Shown here one piece after another: positions 37,522 through 44,217 of a DNA stretch of 64,000 nucleotides. The notes beneath the pieces are model-generated. The model saw nothing but the letters and a program-made list of their open reading frames with translations. It searched no databases and was not told where the DNA came from. A program made the translations under genes and the position numbers. The DNA comes from Thalassobaculaceae bacterium (GTDB lineage: Bacteria; Pseudomonadota; Alphaproteobacteria; Thalassobaculales; Thalassobaculaceae): contig OZ245843.1 of NCBI GenBank assembly GCA_965228875.1, positions 4,260,616 through 4,324,615 of the forward strand, read 5' to 3'. How positions within the stretch are numbered: the first letter of the stretch is position 1; each line of letters opens with the position of its first letter.

Positions 37522-38256
37522 ATGACCGATCTGCGCCTTCTGCCCCGCCGCCTGCTCGACCTCGTTCTGCCGCCGCGCTGCGGTCTGTGCGGCGTCGATG
37601 TGCCGGCCGACGGGGTCCTGTGCCTGGCGTGTTGGCAGTCGGTCCGGTTCCTCACCGAGCCGCTCTGCGAGGTCTGCGGGATCCCGTTCGAGGTTCGGCC
37701 GATCGGCCGGGCGGTCTGCGGCGACTGCCTCGCGTCTCCGCCGGTCTTCGCGCGCGCCCGGTCCGCAGTGCTGTACGACGATGCGACCCGCCCGCTGGTC
37801 CTGGCGTTCAAGCACGCCGACCGGTTGACCCTGGCGCCGCTGTTCGCCTCCTGGATGCGCGGCGCCGGTGCCGACCTGCTCGCCACCGCCGACGTGATCG
37901 TGCCGGTGCCGCTGCACCGGTGGAGACTGTTGGCGAGGCGATACAATCAGGCCGCGATATTATCTTATGCTATTGCAAAGCAATGCGGGATTCCCGTTGC
38001 CGACGATCTGTTGCTCCGGGTCCGCCGAACGCCGAGTCAGGGGCGCCGCACGGCCGCACAACGGGCCCGAAACGTGCGCGGAGCATTCGCGCTACGGAAT
38101 AACTGCGGTGGAAAGGCGGAAGCGATCGAGGGTCGCCGGATCCTGCTCGTGGACGACGTTTTCACAACGGGATCCACGGTTTCCGCCTGTGTGCGGGTGC
38201 TCGCGCGGGGTGGCGCCCGATCGGTCGATGTCCTCACTTTGGCGCGTGTGGGCTAA
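37522..38256 (+). CDS. comF: ComF family protein (double zinc ribbon + PRTase)
   Basis: Four CxxC pairs, VPVPLH, RRYNQA, LLVDDVFTTGST. Confidence 0.93.
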   Translation: MTDLRLLPRRLLDLVLPPRCGLCGVDVPADGVLCLACWQSVRFLTEPLCEVCGIPFEVRPIGRAVCGDCLASPPVFARARSAVLYDDATRPLVLAFKHADRLTLAPLFASWMRGAGADLLATADVIVPVPLHRWRLLARRYNQAAILSYAIAKQCGIPVADDLLLRVRRTPSQGRRTAAQRARNVRGAFALRNNCGGKAEAIEGRRILLVDDVFTTGSTVSACVRVLARGGARSVDVLTLARVG

Positions 38257-38276
38257 CTCACCGAAATCAGACCGCT

Positions 38277-38304
38277 TTGCAGGAAGACCCCAATTTTCTT
38301 ATCT
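38277..38304 (+). promoter_or_regulatory. candidate RpoH-type promoter of grxC
   Basis: TTG-N18-CTTATCT about 38 nt upstream of the ATG. Confidence 0.4.
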
Positions 38305-38341
38305 ACTGCGCAGCGACGTGTGCATCACAGGAGGGACCAAG

Positions 38342-38617
38342 ATGGCCAAAGAGGCCAGGGTTGAAATCTACACGACCATGTTCTGTCCGTACTGCTACCG
38401 TGCCAAGTCGCTACTGGCGAACAAGGGGGTCGACTACGTCGAGTACGATGTCGGCGGTTCGGCCGAGGCGCGTCGCAAGATGAGCGACCGGGCCGAGGGC
38501 CGTCACACCGTGCCGCAGATCTTCATTTCCGGCGAGGGGATCGGCGGTTCCGACGAGCTTGCGGAACTGGAGCGGACCGGTAAGCTGGACCACCTGCTCG
38601 GCGTTTCGCTGGTCTGA
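38342..38617 (+). CDS. grxC: glutaredoxin 3
   Basis: CPYC, TVPQIFI, IGGSD; AGGAGG RBS. Confidence 0.96.
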   Translation: MAKEARVEIYTTMFCPYCYRAKSLLANKGVDYVEYDVGGSAEARRKMSDRAEGRHTVPQIFISGEGIGGSDELAELERTGKLDHLLGVSLV

Positions 38618-38697
38618 CGGTTCCGTCGGACCGCGGCCGAGCGAGCGTTTTTCTCGGCTGAATAGCCTGCGCCGAGTATCCAGCCCGGAGGTCCGCG

Positions 38698-39555
38698 ATG
38701 ACGCGTCTGACTGTCGCCTGCGTTCAGACCAACACAACCCGCGATCCGCTCGAGAACATCGAGCGGGTGAGCCCGCTGATCCGCGAGGCGAAGGACCGGG
38801 GCGCGCAGCTGGTCACCACGCCGGAAATCGTCGGCATGCTGGAGCCGAAGCGGGATCTGGCGCTCGCCAAGGCGAGGCCGGAGGAAAGCCACGAGGTTCT
38901 GGCAGCCTTTCGCGGACTTGCCGCCGAACTCGGCATCTGGCTGCTGGTGGGATCGATCTCCATCAAGGTCTCCGACGACAAGCTCGCCAACCGAAGCTTC
39001 CTGCTCGACGACCAGGGGCAGATCGTCGCCCGGTATTCCAAGATCCATATGTTCGACGTCCAGGTCGGCGACGGCCAGACCTACCGGGAAAGCAACACCT
39101 ACCGGGCCGGCGACGAGGCGGTGATCGCCGAGACGCCCTGGGGCCGGATGGGCATGACCATCTGTTACGACATCCGCTTCCCGTACCTCTACCGCAAGCT
39201 GGCGCAGGCCGGAGCCGAGGTGATCTTCGCGCCGGCCGCCTTCACCAAGGTCACCGGTGAGGCGCACTGGCACGTGCTGCAGCGCGCCCGGGCGATCGAG
39301 ACGGGCTGCTACATCGTTTCCGCCGCCCAGACCGGCGAACATGCCGAGGGACGCCGTACCTACGGCCATTCGGTCGTCGTCGGCCCCTGGGGCGAGGTTC
39401 TGGCCGATGCCGGCGAGGATGTCGGCGTGATCACCGCCGAGATCGATCTGGCGCGGGTGGCCGAGGCGCGGGGCAAGGTGCCGTCGCTCACCCATGATCG
39501 CGTGATCGGCGACCCGGCGGTCTACGGCGCCGCCCTCCGCCAGGCCGGCGAATAA
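38698..39555 (+). CDS. carbon-nitrogen hydrolase (Nit1 / deaminated glutathione amidase-like)
   Basis: TPE, YSKIHMFD, ICYDIRFP catalytic triad motifs; ARAIE, TYGHS. Confidence 0.93.
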   Translation: MTRLTVACVQTNTTRDPLENIERVSPLIREAKDRGAQLVTTPEIVGMLEPKRDLALAKARPEESHEVLAAFRGLAAELGIWLLVGSISIKVSDDKLANRSFLLDDQGQIVARYSKIHMFDVQVGDGQTYRESNTYRAGDEAVIAETPWGRMGMTICYDIRFPYLYRKLAQAGAEVIFAPAAFTKVTGEAHWHVLQRARAIETGCYIVSAAQTGEHAEGRRTYGHSVVVGPWGEVLADAGEDVGVITAEIDLARVAEARGKVPSLTHDRVIGDPAVYGAALRQAGE

Positions 39556-39584
39556 ACGCCGGCCGGGGGTCGGAAAGGTAAGAT

Positions 39585-40109
39585 TCAGACCGGCCGGACA
39601 GCCACCACCCGCTGTTTCGCGGCGGGGCGCGGTACGCGCTCCTCCAGGTCCTCGAAGGCCACGACCTGAAGTTCCGGGCGCACCGCGATCAGCAGTTCCT
39701 CGCGGTGCAGCAGGAAGTTGGGGTTGCTCGGTCTGCCGAACCGCTCGTTGCCGACGGCGAAGGTCTCGTAGATCAGAACGCCGCCGGGCGCCACCGCGCC
39801 GACCAGCGCGTCGAACAGCGGCCGATGCAGGTAGTTGACCACCACGACCGCCGCGAAGACCCGATCGCCCAGCGGCCAAGGCCGGCCGTTCTCCAGGTCC
39901 CGGGCGACGATCTCCACGCCCTCGTCGACCGACATGTCGCTGACCCCCGACACGTCGCGGTCGAGGACGACGACCGGATGCCCGCGGTCGCGGAACATGC
40001 GGGCGTGCCGGCCGTCGCCGCAGGCGACGTCGAGGACCGTCCCGCCCTCCGGGACCATCGGGGCGAACCGCGCCACCCAGGCCGAAGGGTCGACCGGCGG
40101 CACCGCCAT
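39585..40109 (-). CDS. class I SAM-dependent methyltransferase
   Basis: VLDVACGDGRH, VVVNYLHRPL, PGGVLIYETF, GRPSNPNFLL. Confidence 0.88.
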   Translation of the reverse strand: MAVPPVDPSAWVARFAPMVPEGGTVLDVACGDGRHARMFRDRGHPVVVLDRDVSGVSDMSVDEGVEIVARDLENGRPWPLGDRVFAAVVVVNYLHRPLFDALVGAVAPGGVLIYETFAVGNERFGRPSNPNFLLHREELLIAVRPELQVVAFEDLEERVPRPAAKQRVVAVRPV

Positions 40110-40111
40110 GC

Positions 40112-42226
40112 TCAGACCTCCACGCTGGCCGGCACGCGCGCGCCGGTGAAGCCGCAGGCCGGACTGGCAAGACGGACGAAGACGCCGGCGATCTCCTCCG
40201 GCGTCGGCAGCCGGTTCGGATCCTCGTCGGGGAAGGCGGATGCGCGCATCCCGGTCCGCACCTCCCCGGGGTCGACCAGGTTGACCCGGACACCGCTAGA
40301 GCGGGTCTCGGCGGCATAGGCCCGCGCCAGGGCCTCCAGCCCCGCCTTCGACGCGGCATAGGCGCCCCAGTCCGCCATCGCCCCCAGCGCCGCGCCCGAG
40401 GTGACCAGGATCGCCCGGCCCGACGGAGAGGCGCGAAGCAGCGGATCGAGCTCGCGCAGCAGCCGCCATGTCCCGGTCAGGTTGACGGCGATCGTCTGAT
40501 CGAACGCGGCGTCGGGCGCGTCGGCCAGGGGCGCTATCGGACCCAGAAGTCCATGATTGGCCACGACCACGTCGAGCCTGCCGAGCTTGTCGCCGAGGCG
40601 TTTGGCCAGCCCTTTCGTCGCCATCGGATCTCCAAGGTCCAGCTCCATCGTCGCCGCCTGTCCGCCGGCCCTGCGAATACGATCGGCGACGGCGTCCAGC
40701 GCCGGCTGCGAGCGCGCGGCCAGCACCACGCGCGCGCCCTCCGCGGCGTAGCGTTCGGCGACGGCGGCGCCGATCCCCCGCGATGCGCCGGTGACGAGGC
40801 ATGTCAGCCCCTTGAGCGCGCCGCCGCCGGCGGTCAGCTCGGCCAGCGCCCGATCGTCGCCGACCACCTGGATCTGCTGCAGGATATCGTCCAGCACGGC
40901 GCGCAGGGTCCCGGCGATGCGGTCGATCTCGCCGTGGGTGACGACCAGCGGCGGCGCGATCACCAGGGCGTCGCGCACCGCACGCAGGATGATCCCCCGG
41001 GCCTGCATCTGGTCGCGTACGACCGCGCCGACGATGCCTTCCGGATCGAAGAGCATCCTGGGCTCGCGCTGCTGAACCAGTTCGACCGCGCCGATCAGGC
41101 CAAGGGTGCGGACCTCGCCGACCATGGGGTGGCCGCCAAGCGCGGCGAGCGCGTCGGAGAAATGCGCCGCCAGGTCGTCGCGCACCCGCGCCACGAGTCC
41201 CTCGCGCTCGACGATCTCCAGGTTGGCCAGCGCCACCGCCGCCGCCACCGGGTGTCCGGCATAGGTGAACCCGTGGGCCAGACCGCCGCTCTTCTCGATC
41301 AGGACTTCGGCGACCCGGTTGCCGACCATCACCGCCGAGATCGGCTGGTAGCCGGAGGACAAGCCCTTGGCCAGGGCGATGAAGTCGGGCGCGAGCCCGA
41401 ACAGTTCGGCCGCCGTCCAGGCGCCGAGCCGGCCGAAGGCGCTGACCACCTCGTCCAGTGCGAACAGGACGTCGTGTCGGCGGCAGATCTCCTGCACCCG
41501 TGCCAGATAACCCGGCGGCGGGATGATGACACCGCCGGCCCCCTGCACCGGTTCGACAACGACGCCGGCGACGGTGTCGGCCCCCAGCTCGAGGATCTTG
41601 GCCTCGATCCAGCCGGCCGCCCGCTCGCAGAAGGCCTCTTGGCTCTCGCCGGTCTGCGCATGGCGGAAGGCGTAGGGTGCGCCGACATGGACGAAGCCGG
41701 GCAGCGGCAATCCGCCCTGGGCATGCATGGCGACGGTGCCGCCGAGGCTTATCGTCGCCAGGGTCGAGCCGTGATAGCCCTCCTCCCGGCCGATCATCAC
41801 CGTCTTCTCCGGCCGGCCCCTGAGCTCCCAGTAGAGCCGGCAGAACCGCACGATGGTATCCAGTGCCTCGGAGCCGGAATTGGCGAAGACCACATGGTCG
41901 AGGCCGGACGGCGTGAGGTCGACGAGTTTCGCGGCGAGGGCGGCGGTCGGTGCCGTCGTCGTCTTGAAGAAGGTGTTGTAGTAGGCGAGCCGCTCGACCT
42001 GATCGGCGGCGACCTTGGCCAGTTCGGTGCGGCCATAGCCGATGTTGACGCACCACAGGCCGGCAAGGGCGTCGAGGTACAGCTTGCCGTTCTCGTCCCA
42101 CAGCGTGCTGCCCCGGCCGCCGGCCATGACGATGGGCGCGTCGTCCTGCAGGACCTTCGGGTCGGTGAAGGGGTGGAGGTGGTGGTCGCGATCGAGGCGC
42201 GCCAGATCGGACGGTGTCTCGGGCAT
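40112..42226 (-). CDS. class III aminotransferase fused to a short-chain dehydrogenase (704 aa)
   Basis: N-part: YLDALAGLW, SGSEA, YHGST, EPVQG, DEVVSAFGRLG, AKGLSSGY, HGFTYAGHP. C-part: TGASRGIG, YAASK, VDPGEVRT. No stop between the parts. Confidence 0.9.
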   Translation of the reverse strand: MPETPSDLARLDRDHHLHPFTDPKVLQDDAPIVMAGGRGSTLWDENGKLYLDALAGLWCVNIGYGRTELAKVAADQVERLAYYNTFFKTTTAPTAALAAKLVDLTPSGLDHVVFANSGSEALDTIVRFCRLYWELRGRPEKTVMIGREEGYHGSTLATISLGGTVAMHAQGGLPLPGFVHVGAPYAFRHAQTGESQEAFCERAAGWIEAKILELGADTVAGVVVEPVQGAGGVIIPPPGYLARVQEICRRHDVLFALDEVVSAFGRLGAWTAAELFGLAPDFIALAKGLSSGYQPISAVMVGNRVAEVLIEKSGGLAHGFTYAGHPVAAAVALANLEIVEREGLVARVRDDLAAHFSDALAALGGHPMVGEVRTLGLIGAVELVQQREPRMLFDPEGIVGAVVRDQMQARGIILRAVRDALVIAPPLVVTHGEIDRIAGTLRAVLDDILQQIQVVGDDRALAELTAGGGALKGLTCLVTGASRGIGAAVAERYAAEGARVVLAARSQPALDAVADRIRRAGGQAATMELDLGDPMATKGLAKRLGDKLGRLDVVVANHGLLGPIAPLADAPDAAFDQTIAVNLTGTWRLLRELDPLLRASPSGRAILVTSGAALGAMADWGAYAASKAGLEALARAYAAETRSSGVRVNLVDPGEVRTGMRASAFPDEDPNRLPTPEEIAGVFVRLASPACGFTGARVPASVEV

Positions 42227-42320
42227 CGCGGGCCTCTCATCTCATGCGCCGGCGCCGTTGGATGGTGGAACGGCCTGACATGACGGCTATATTACCGGCT
42301 CAGAGAAGTTTGGGTGACCG

Positions 42321-42779
42321 ATGATCCGCTATCGCCTGCGCTGCGCCGCCGAGCATGAGTTCGAGGCCTGGTTCCAGAGCAGTTCGGCCTACGAGAAGCA
42401 GGCCGAATCGGGCCTGCTGTCCTGTCCGCACTGCGGCTCGTCCGAGGTGTCGCGCGCGCTGATGGCACCGGCCCTCCAGGGCACCCGCAAGGAGAGCGCA
42501 CCGGTCCCCGTCGAGCCTTCGCCGGAGCAGAAACAGGTCGTGACCCAGGCCCAAGCGGAGGCGCTGGCCCTCAAGCAGCAGCTTCTCGGCCTGCGCCGGA
42601 AGATCGAAGAGAACTTCGACAATGTCGGCAACCGCTTCGCCGAGGAGGCGCGCAAGATCCACTACGGCGACAGCGATGCCCGCGGGATCTACGGCGACAC
42701 CACGCCCCAGGAGCGGGAGGCGCTGGCCGAGGAGGGGATCGAGGTCGGAACCATCCCCTGGCTGCGCGACGATGCCTGA
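42321..42779 (+). CDS. DUF1178 family protein
   Basis: MIRYRLRC..HEFEAWF, CPHCGS, VGNRFAEEARKIHYG. Confidence 0.93.
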   Translation: MIRYRLRCAAEHEFEAWFQSSSAYEKQAESGLLSCPHCGSSEVSRALMAPALQGTRKESAPVPVEPSPEQKQVVTQAQAEALALKQQLLGLRRKIEENFDNVGNRFAEEARKIHYGDSDARGIYGDTTPQEREALAEEGIEVGTIPWLRDDA

Positions 42780-42795
42780 CCGCCGGGACTGAACG

Positions 42796-44217
42796 GTGTC
42801 CGGCGACCCGCTGATCGACGGTCTGCGCCGCGATCTCGGCGACGACGCGGTCCTGACCCGACCCGACGACCGCACCCGCTACGAGACCGACGTTCTGCAA
42901 ACCCGTACCGGCCGGGCCCGCGCGGTGCTGCGTCCGCGCACGACGCGGGAGGTGGCGCAGGCGGTCCGGCGCTGTGCCGCGGCCGGTGTCGCGATCGTGC
43001 CCCAGGGCGGCAATACCGGTTTCTGCCAGGGCGCCACGCCGCCGGACGACGGCGCGGCGGTGGTCCTGTCGACCGAGCGGTTGCGGGCGATCCGGGACGT
43101 CGATCCGACCGGCTCGACGATGATCGCGGAGGCGGGGGTGACCCTGGCCGACGCGCGGACGTGCGCGGCGACCCATGGCCGGCAACTGGCGATTCACCAC
43201 GGCGGCCTGTCCTCGACCGTCGGCGGCAACGTGTCGACCAATGCGGGCGGCAACAACGTCCTGCGCTACGGCATGGCGCGGTCGCAGATCCTCGGGCTCG
43301 AGGCGGTGCTGGCCGACGGGCAGATCTGGAACGGCCTGCGGGCCTTGGCCAAGGACAATGCCGGTACCGATCTCAAGCAGCTCTTCATCGGCACCGAGGG
43401 GACGCTCGGCATCGTCACCGCCGCGTGTCTGCGGCTGCACCCCGCCGCCGGCCGGACGGCGACGGCCCTGGTCGCGGTGCCCTCGCCGGCGGCAGCGCTG
43501 GCGCTGCTCGCCCGTCTTCAGGATGCCGCCGGCGACGCCATCACGGCAGCCGAACTGATCCCCCGGACCGGCCTCGACCTGCACTTCGCCCACGCCGGGG
43601 CCCGGCGCGAACCCTTCGCCGGCCTTCATCCCTGGCAGGTGCTGGTGGAGCTGGCCTCGGCCAGCCGGTACTTCGATCTGGACGCCGCGCTGGAGGCCGC
43701 CGTCGGCGCGGCACTCGAGGCGGGCGAGGCAGTCGACGCGGTGCAGGCCCGCTCGGAGGCGCAGCGCGCCGGACTGTGGAGCCTTCGGGAGGGGCTGGCT
43801 GTCGCCCAGGTGGACACGCCCGGAAACCTGAAGAACGACACGTCGGTCCCGGTGTCGGCGATCCCGAATTTCATCGCCCGGGCGAGCGCCGCCGTCGCCG
43901 CCGTCGTCCCGGACGCGGTGCCGATCCCGTTCGGCCACCTCGGCGACGGCAACATCCATTTCAATGTCAATCCGCCATCCGGCGGCGACGGGGCCGCCTT
44001 CCGGGCGCACTGGCCGGCGCTGATCGCGACGATAGACGGCGAAGCGACGGCGCTCGGCGGGTCGATTGCCGCCGAGCACGGGCTCGGTCGGACCAAGGTA
44101 TCGGCTGCGGCGCGGTTGAAACCGGGGCTCGATCTCGATCTGATGCGGCGGCTGAAGCGGGCCCTCGACCCGGGTGGGCACCTCAATCCCGGGGTGATGC
44201 TGGAACCGGAGCGATGA
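42796..44217 (+). CDS. FAD-linked oxidoreductase (GlcD/D2HGDH family)
   Basis: PQGGNTG, STNAGG, GTEGTLG, GHLGDGNIH, AEHGLG, LNPG. Confidence 0.92.
   Translation: MSGDPLIDGLRRDLGDDAVLTRPDDRTRYETDVLQTRTGRARAVLRPRTTREVAQAVRRCAAAGVAIVPQGGNTGFCQGATPPDDGAAVVLSTERLRAIRDVDPTGSTMIAEAGVTLADARTCAATHGRQLAIHHGGLSSTVGGNVSTNAGGNNVLRYGMARSQILGLEAVLADGQIWNGLRALAKDNAGTDLKQLFIGTEGTLGIVTAACLRLHPAAGRTATALVAVPSPAAALALLARLQDAAGDAITAAELIPRTGLDLHFAHAGARREPFAGLHPWQVLVELASASRYFDLDAALEAAVGAALEAGEAVDAVQARSEAQRAGLWSLREGLAVAQVDTPGNLKNDTSVPVSAIPNFIARASAAVAAVVPDAVPIPFGHLGDGNIHFNVNPPSGGDGAAFRAHWPALIATIDGEATALGGSIAAEHGLGRTKVSAAARLKPGLDLDLMRRLKRALDPGGHLNPGVMLEPER

Follow-up and report, generated by a model that had tools for sequence, protein, structure and literature searches.

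A natural omega-transaminase–SDR fusion gene in Thalassobaculaceae, inserted next to an older methyltransferase gene

The fusion gene and its domains

We analyzed a 64,000-nucleotide stretch of contig OZ245843.1 (assembly GCA_965228875.1, Thalassobaculaceae bacterium), hereafter the window, which contains a gene joining two enzymes in one continuous frame. The gene lies on the minus strand (40112..42226, ending in a TGA at 40112-40114) and encodes 704 amino acids, in which an omega-transaminase is followed by a helical connector and a short-chain dehydrogenase/reductase (SDR), as delimited by the open reading frame (ORF) and by domain profiles. The initial annotation, made from the sequence alone, had described a complete class III aminotransferase, a linker and a complete SDR within these 704 residues. 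Pfam and NCBIfam profiles bear out this description, and the motifs it named (TGASRGIG and YAASK), together with its linker text, are all present in the translation.

The transaminase domain comprises residues 1-455 (40862..42226, minus strand) and was assigned from PF00202, PRK07480, Protein Data Bank (PDB) matches and invariant alignment columns. Aminotran_3 (PF00202) covers residues 30-444 with an E-value of 1e-84 and 285 bits, against a cut-off of 30.5, and the match spans profile positions 9-402 of 403. The NCBIfam model PRK07480 ‘aminotransferase’ (NF005682) was passed with 603.4 bits, against a cut-off of 510, and this full-length match above a curated threshold places the domain among the class III aminotransferases, in the omega-amine:pyruvate subgroup. 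Its closest PDB matches are putrescine and polyamine:pyruvate transaminases and related amine transaminases (E 1e-144 to 1e-133).

Residues K287, D258, E225, Y151, W58, T321 and R415 are invariant across 45 aligned fused sequences, and K287, D258 and R415 are also identical in unfused relatives. Taking residue roles and active-site positions from the Chromobacterium violaceum enzyme, we assume that K287 is the lysine forming the Schiff base with pyridoxal phosphate (PLP), D258 the aspartate binding the pyridine nitrogen and R415 the arginine binding the carboxylate. At the candidate active-site positions the fused, sister and paralogue transaminase clades do not differ from one another, and just seven positions set the fused clade apart. 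On sequence grounds, the transaminase half appears to descend from the polyamine:pyruvate transaminases (SpuC-type, fold type I, PLP-dependent).

The genomic settings of unfused relatives are of interest here. Unfused sister transaminases adjoin a Gln-synt_C gene in all four annotated loci, with genes for arginase-family proteins, DAO-type oxidases or amidohydrolases nearby; such neighborhoods are the usual setting of polyamine and agmatine breakdown. Likewise, a standalone transaminase paralogue in the window’s own genome (57% identity) adjoins a glutamine-synthetase-like gene.

The SDR domain (residues 473-704; 40115..40810, minus strand) was assigned from PF00106, NCBIfam and PDB matches and invariant columns. 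The adh_short profile (PF00106) matches residues 476-668 with an E-value of 3e-46 and 157.8 bits. In the 45-sequence alignment T479, G480, A481, G484, R505, S610, Y623 and K627 are invariant, and G486 and N582 are kept in at least 90% of sequences. The domain thus has the features of a classical SDR, namely the TGxxxGxG glycine motif of the Rossmann fold and a catalytic Ser-Tyr-Lys set with Asn. The best NCBIfam model is the YciK equivalog (NF006509), for which the domain scores 184.5 bits and falls under the cut-off of 269; we therefore regard it as YciK-like rather than as a YciK equivalog. Its best solved relative is PDB 4z0t (E 2.9e-58), with YciK entries following at E 1e-36.

The glycine motif TGASRGIG contains an arginine, and the invariant R505 follows strand beta-2. 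We take these two features together as the NADP(H) signature of classical SDRs under the Kallberg-Persson rule, and hence the motif would favor a reductase role in the cell.

The window’s genome also encodes a standalone YciK-like SDR (54% identity) directly downstream of purF (L068, G000:C1:648790-652479). The same purF-SDR order was seen in all four other alphaproteobacterial genomes examined (L123-L126), and this conserved pairing might hint at the role of this SDR family.

Between the two domains lies a connector of about 25 residues (about 445-472; 40811..40894, minus strand), defined by regional conservation and by the secondary structure of an AlphaFold2 (AF2) model. It is the least conserved part of the protein, with a mean column identity of 0.53. 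The AF2 model has a mean predicted local distance difference test (pLDDT) score of 83.3 and a predicted template modeling (pTM) score of 0.77. A single long helix (residues 431-465) runs through the connector, with pLDDT values of 84-95 for the blocks covering 431-470, which suggests a fixed rather than floppy joining of the two domains. Stretches of low confidence fall in the transaminase (residues 1-37, 261-268 and 288-293), as would be expected when an obligate dimer is folded as a monomer; SDRs, for their part, commonly assemble as dimers or tetramers. Docking of residues 1-446 against 468-704 returned a score of 0.00, was run with no controls, gave no verdict and is counted neither way.

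Distribution, origin and insertion site

In a large protein collection, about 60 protein clusters of approximately 700 residues contained both domains, with identities from 87% down to about 55% and source names Thalassobaculum and Nisaea. Below them the match list continues with standalone transaminases of approximately 455 residues. Fused proteins are thus already present in public databases, where they are labeled just ‘aminotransferase’. Among 63 genomes of the window’s family, 34 carry the fusion (32 at full length and two cut by contig ends), and these genomes represent nine of the family’s 17 genera. For four of the full-length matches the alignment overran the terminal stop (query to residue 701), which probably reflects the natural stop, because homologues of 700 residues exist. 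A larger alignment of 56 fused proteins showed the same catalytic invariance as the one of 45.

No split, two-gene form was found among close relatives. Genuine standalone SDRs reach at most 53-60% identity, and higher-scoring short SDR matches look like contig-end fragments of fused proteins. Support for the frame at its junctions comes from contigs of three other studies, all of which span the linker and two of which also span the stop/start junction with the following gene, and no insertions or deletions were reported in them at either place. Strain differences point in the same direction: of 33 listed within the ORF (39 more lie beyond these), 27 are synonymous and none creates a stop, and the three that fall in the connector are all synonymous. 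The fusion is under purifying selection, and it is real and conserved, not an accident.

We also scanned 301 genomes across the class with a query consisting of the linker and SDR, and a fused frame was found only in the two family members that this sample contains (G000 and G030); two of the 301 genomes, G102 and G301, are unpublished. Four of the long frames over SDR matches outside the family were inspected (G071, G344, G249 and G243), and all proved to be purF with a separate SDR. Eight further long frames were listed (G222, G138, G098, G153, G306, G102, G184 and G242), five of which have a stop inside the match. Among the genomes examined, then, the fusion is confined to one subclade of one alphaproteobacterial family.

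Two side observations may be added. One locus from an unrelated uncultured bacterium (L027:5911-8197) was considered as a distant fused form and rejected, as it holds two separate ORFs: a 50%-identical transaminase and, 17 nt later on the same strand, an SDR gene of 274 residues. This unfused pair may perform similar two-step chemistry. In addition, two genomes of the window’s own genus (G041 and G042; 1.5 Mb, single contig, 99% complete) are without the fusion, the methyltransferase described below and DsyB, a methyltransferase of dimethylsulfoniopropionate (DMSP) synthesis. They look like reduced genomes in a genus otherwise of 4.6-5.6 Mb.

Phylogenies of the two halves are consistent with a single origin of the fusion. 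In the SDR tree (169 sequences, 56 fused and 113 standalone) the fused set occupies one side of a branch with Shimodaira-Hasegawa-like approximate likelihood ratio test (SH-aLRT) support of 100, and the same holds, again with support of 100, in the transaminase tree (113 sequences, 56 fused and 57 standalone). When the transaminase tree was rooted with more distant paralogues, the fused clade was sister to 13 unfused proteins of other bacteria (SH-aLRT 92) and not to the family’s own paralogue clade. The fused SDRs did not group with standalone YciK homologues: 56 standalone sequences form a clade with SH-aLRT support of 100 that does not include the 19 fused domains in that tree. Recent duplication of resident paralogues, considered as a source of either half, was not supported by the trees.

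We next describe the genes around the fusion. Downstream on the same strand lies a gene for a small class I S-adenosylmethionine (SAM) methyltransferase of 174 residues (39585..40109, minus strand), recognized from weak Pfam hits (Methyltransf_23/25 and MetW, E about 1e-5) and a PDB match (Slr1183 at best, E 1e-4). As first noted, its ATG begins 2 nt after the fusion’s TGA; a GGAGG at 40117-40121 lies within the end of the fusion ORF, and the methyltransferase is now probably co-transcribed with the fusion gene. Convergent with it is a carbon-nitrogen hydrolase gene of the nitrilase family (38698..39555, plus strand; PF00795, E 3.3e-64), part of an older comF-grx-nitrilase block. Upstream of the fusion gene, a divergent intergenic region of 94 bp (42227..42320), defined from the sequence, separates it from a DUF1178 gene, its conserved divergent neighbor (42321..42779, plus strand; PF06676, E 1.8e-53). 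Other neighbors in the window are genes for an FAD-linked oxidase and, upstream, for a glutaredoxin and a ComF-like protein. The FAD-linked oxidase gene (42796-44217) stands between DUF1178 and a small gene in the window and in three of its six closest fused loci (L001, L003 and L005), and is not there in the other three (L002, L004 and L006). No Rfam match was obtained in 38000-44000 at E-values up to 0.1, and no sigma-70-like promoter or intrinsic terminator was found in 39400-42900.

The distribution of the methyltransferase bears on how this arrangement came about. One copy is found in each of 55 of the 63 family genomes, fusion-bearing or not, and 61 of 201 genomes sampled from the class contain the gene. 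In loci from other families it stands directly divergent from DUF1178, with no fusion, in 27 of 28 cases, and 12 of those 28 loci have the nitrilase, often together with glutaredoxin and comF, on the far side of the methyltransferase. Within the family, nine of 14 fusion-less loci show the same divergent methyltransferase-DUF1178 pair with a spacer of about 100-270 bp, and the other five have no DUF1178 within 6 kb. Centering on DUF1178 in the class sample gave 29 loci: in 12 the nitrilase runs straight into DUF1178 on the same strand, in 10 the methyltransferase is divergent from it, and in seven neither is the case.

The initial annotation had held that comF-grxC-nitrilase-DUF1178 is normally contiguous and that the fusion and methyltransferase were inserted into this block as a pair. 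A direct nitrilase-DUF1178 order does exist, in the 12 of 29 loci just described. The methyltransferase is not foreign to the block: since it is divergent from DUF1178 in 10 of 29 and in 27 of 28 loci, it is a native variant of the block, an old resident that predates the fusion. Insertion as a pair fails on the same counts, together with the nine of 14 fusion-less family loci. The family inherited the form of the block with the antisense methyltransferase, and the fusion gene alone was inserted, into the divergent DUF1178-methyltransferase spacer, on the methyltransferase’s strand and upstream of it. The 94-bp region is what was the methyltransferase-DUF1178 spacer before the insertion.

All 11 fused loci from named genomes show the order DUF1178, fusion, methyltransferase, and just the six closest of them (L001-L006) retain the nitrilase side. 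In a tree of the methyltransferase and DUF1178, a 316-column proxy rather than a species tree, 12 fusion-bearing loci and the fusion-less G052 form one clade (SH-aLRT 90, with an inner node at 98), and other fusion-less lineages of the family lie outside it. One gain of the fusion gene with a later loss would be the simplest reading of this pattern.

The head-to-head pair of methyltransferase and DUF1178 is itself conserved over many alphaproteobacterial families (L093-L120 and L127-L156), often adjoining comF-grx-nitrilase. Such conservation suggests shared regulation or a functional link between the two genes.

Proposed function and its alternatives

Given the makeup and conservation of the protein, we propose a genuine bifunctional enzyme, arisen once, that converts an amine by way of an aldehyde to an alcohol and acts on a polyamine-type substrate. 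We assign this reading a probability of roughly 0.55. The transaminase would move the amino group of a primary amine of the polyamine or diamine type to pyruvate, yielding alanine and a reactive aldehyde, and the fused SDR would then reduce the aldehyde with NADPH to an alcohol. The cell would gain nitrogen without ever releasing a toxic (amino)aldehyde, and the reduction would drive the reversible transamination forward. A two-step, channeled amine-carbonyl-alcohol enzyme is the best reading of the sequence, from which we infer the substrate, the direction and the channeling alike. The initial annotation had likewise suggested a two-step enzyme, perhaps one that makes or degrades a methylated compound. 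The two-step part stands at this level of inference, while the methylated compound loses most of its basis, because the methyltransferase is resident at the site independently of the fusion.

Several observations weigh against our proposal. The fusion gene’s own neighbors (DUF1178, methyltransferase and nitrilase) say nothing about amines, and it is the relatives, rather than the fusion gene itself, that stand in a polyamine gene context. An SDR gene lies beside unfused transaminase relatives in just two of 55 loci, both times divergent (tblastn, E 1e-3), to which the ORF listing adds L027, a co-directional pair that tblastn missed and that marks the limited sensitivity of this search; SDR neighbors are rare, and operons at large thus offer no precedent for pairing this transaminase with an SDR. 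The sister relationship in the transaminase tree, with its support of 92, falls below the 95 mark. The SDR tree has an unresolved root. A literature search on YciK turned up no assigned substrate or function, and the active-site positions and the cofactor rule used above are taken over from other enzymes.

Of the alternatives, the one that survives best is the reverse direction, in which the SDR would oxidize an alcohol and the transaminase would aminate the resulting carbonyl with alanine, for the biosynthesis of an amine or amino alcohol. In principle either reaction can run backwards, dehydrogenase-aminotransferase pairs are common in biosynthesis, and the domain and structure matches leave the direction unfixed. 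Against this, R505 and TGASRGIG, the invariant motif of NADP(H) type under the Kallberg-Persson rule, are in keeping with a reductase in vivo, polyamine catabolism is the genomic setting of both the transaminase lineage and its unfused sisters, and no biosynthetic cluster surrounds the fusion gene. We consider biosynthesis possible but unlikely.

It is similarly doubtful, in our estimate, that the two domains work on unrelated substrates and that the fusion brings co-expression or stability alone. The docking, which gave no verdict on an interface, leaves room for such an arrangement, as does the fact that the YciK-like SDR is otherwise a standalone, housekeeping-type gene after purF. Fusions that are held over nine genera and down to about 55% identity, with a structured connector, usually join consecutive steps, however, and the position of the fused SDR outside the sampled standalone SDR clade suggests an altered role.

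A three-step module, in which transaminase, SDR and methyltransferase would together act on a methylated amino alcohol or polyamine derivative, is suggested by the gene order: all 11 fused loci have the methyltransferase downstream of the fusion and on its strand, and in the window just 2 nt separate the two ORFs, the ribosome-binding site falling within the 3' end of the fusion ORF. This adjacency is explained by the landing site of the fusion gene. The methyltransferase predates the fusion, as seen from its presence in 55 of 63 family genomes and 61 of 201 class genomes and from its divergent placement beside DUF1178 without the fusion in 27 of 28 and nine of 14 loci, and it is probably not a dedicated pathway partner. 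We regard the module as improbable.

A further lead concerns DMSP. Its bacterial synthesis proceeds through an aminotransferase, an NADPH reductase and then the methyltransferase DsyB, and a Thalassobaculum strain makes DMSP, according to the available text of one study (PMC5395565). In the available portion of another (PMC11306096), the first two steps are named without enzymes, and the assay of a predicted reductase showed no activity; our literature search for enzymes of these two steps identified none. The fusion could conceivably supply both, as a methionine aminotransferase and an NADPH-dependent 4-methylthio-2-oxobutyrate reductase acting upstream of DsyB. Methionine would then be converted to 4-methylthio-2-oxobutyrate and, with NADPH, to 4-methylthio-2-hydroxybutyrate (MTHB), the substrate of DsyB, although we think this sequence of reactions very improbable for the fusion.

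The window’s genome does encode a homologue of DsyB (E 4.5e-99 to PDB 7wdq), and DMSP production is accordingly predicted for the organism. This DsyB-type MTHB S-methyltransferase homologue of 342 residues lies outside the window (G000:C1:4661195-4662220; L121:1432-2460, minus strand).

At orthologue level, 36 of the 63 family genomes have a DsyB match, as do 29 of the 34 fusion-bearing genomes. Across the 63 genomes both genes are present in 29, only the fusion in five, only DsyB in seven and neither in 22. This co-occurrence holds at the clade level only: complete genomes are discordant in both directions, and so are genomes within two genera (g12 and g16). Moreover, dsyB is unlinked, about 360 kb from the fusion gene, and the transaminase retains the candidate active-site positions of polyamine transaminases. 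A class III omega-transaminase and a YciK-like SDR are not the types expected for an alpha-amino acid and a 2-oxo acid. In the available text of PMC5395565, dsyB alone gave DMSP synthesis to a Rhizobium, which indicates that generic enzymes suffice for the earlier steps. The DMSP link is thus weak, and a role for the fusion in this pathway is highly unlikely; if true, it would assign enzymes to the two pathway steps left unassigned in the part of PMC11306096 available.

Finally, an artefact or recent accident can be dismissed: the sequencing error, chance loss of a stop codon or dead domain that the initial annotation had worried about are excluded by the same continuous frame in 34 genomes of nine genera and about 60 clusters, by other assemblies free of indels, by 27 of 33 differences being synonymous and by invariant catalytic residues.

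Relation to known enzymes

Each half of the fusion has close standalone counterparts. Its N-terminal 455 residues match SpuC-type putrescine/polyamine:pyruvate transaminases (PDB 6gwi, 6hx9, 9j4z and 4a6r) over their full length. Those enzymes are standalone proteins of about 455 residues, while in the fusion an SDR follows at the C terminus and no polyamine gene cluster surrounds the gene. The closest family to the C-terminal 235 residues is that of the YciK SDRs (Escherichia coli YciK, PDB 3f1k; alphaproteobacterial 4z0t), with which they share the glycine motif and the Ser-Tyr-Lys triad. YciK-family proteins are standalone and encoded after purF, whereas the fusion’s SDR scores below the equivalog cut-off and falls outside the standalone clade.

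The nearest natural parallels in overall design are the transaminase-acyl-ACP reductase PP_2782 and its homologues (PMC10829540) and the transaminase-thioester reductase PtTamH (PMC9594044). As given in the available text of these papers, they too consist of an N-terminal PLP-dependent transaminase, a linker and a C-terminal nicotinamide-dependent reductase, and as in our proposal the aldehyde is handled within one protein. In them the aldehyde arises from an activated acyl group through the reductase and is then aminated by the transaminase, and the genes lie in clusters of the fatty-acid or polyketide type. The order that we infer for the present fusion is reversed, with the transaminase first, and no such cluster surrounds the gene. 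The fusion does not belong to this type, which, in the available text of PMC10829540, has an acyl-ACP or thioester reductase of about 400 residues and an acyl-carrier/ketosynthase cluster; its partner domain is a classical SDR of 235 residues.

Clusters in the ESM Atlas pair Aminotran_1_2 with adh_short and thus also combine an aminotransferase with an SDR at similar size (676 residues in bacteria, 622 in Nucleocytoviricota). Their aminotransferase is of class I/II, not III, and the likeness is solely one of language-model features (score 0.90). With 93 bacterial and 105 Nucleocytoviricota members, these clusters are independent cases of the same domain pairing. Among the hits in this resource, which covered clusters of at least 50 members, there was no Aminotran_3 plus adh_short cluster.

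The same pair of chemistries has been placed in one chain by engineering, in alcohol dehydrogenase-transaminase fusions for alcohol-to-amine cascades (reviewed in PMC6563810). Those fusions are man-made; the one described here arose naturally, and selection has maintained it across a bacterial family. We found no description of a fusion of a class III omega-transaminase with a classical SDR in a literature search that left most subscription journals outside its reach. Relative to characterized natural transaminase fusions, what appears new here is the pairing of these two enzyme classes.

Natural bifunctional transaminases are few, according to the available text of PMC10829540, and its conclusions add that an efficient route between alcohol and amine would require a carbonyl reductase as the partner instead. 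The family described here is such a pairing of transaminase and classical SDR, ready-made by evolution, with dozens of natural variants in culturable marine bacteria, among them Thalassobaculum litoreum and T. fulvum (loci L002 and L009). It offers a direct template for biocatalysts of amine-alcohol cascades and a test case for aldehyde channeling. There is also a lesson for annotation: the operon inference, however tempting, is corrected here, as the downstream methyltransferase has long resided at the site and is not a pathway partner. For the SDR family itself, the fusion to a transaminase of apparent polyamine lineage could provide the first substrate clue for YciK-like SDRs.

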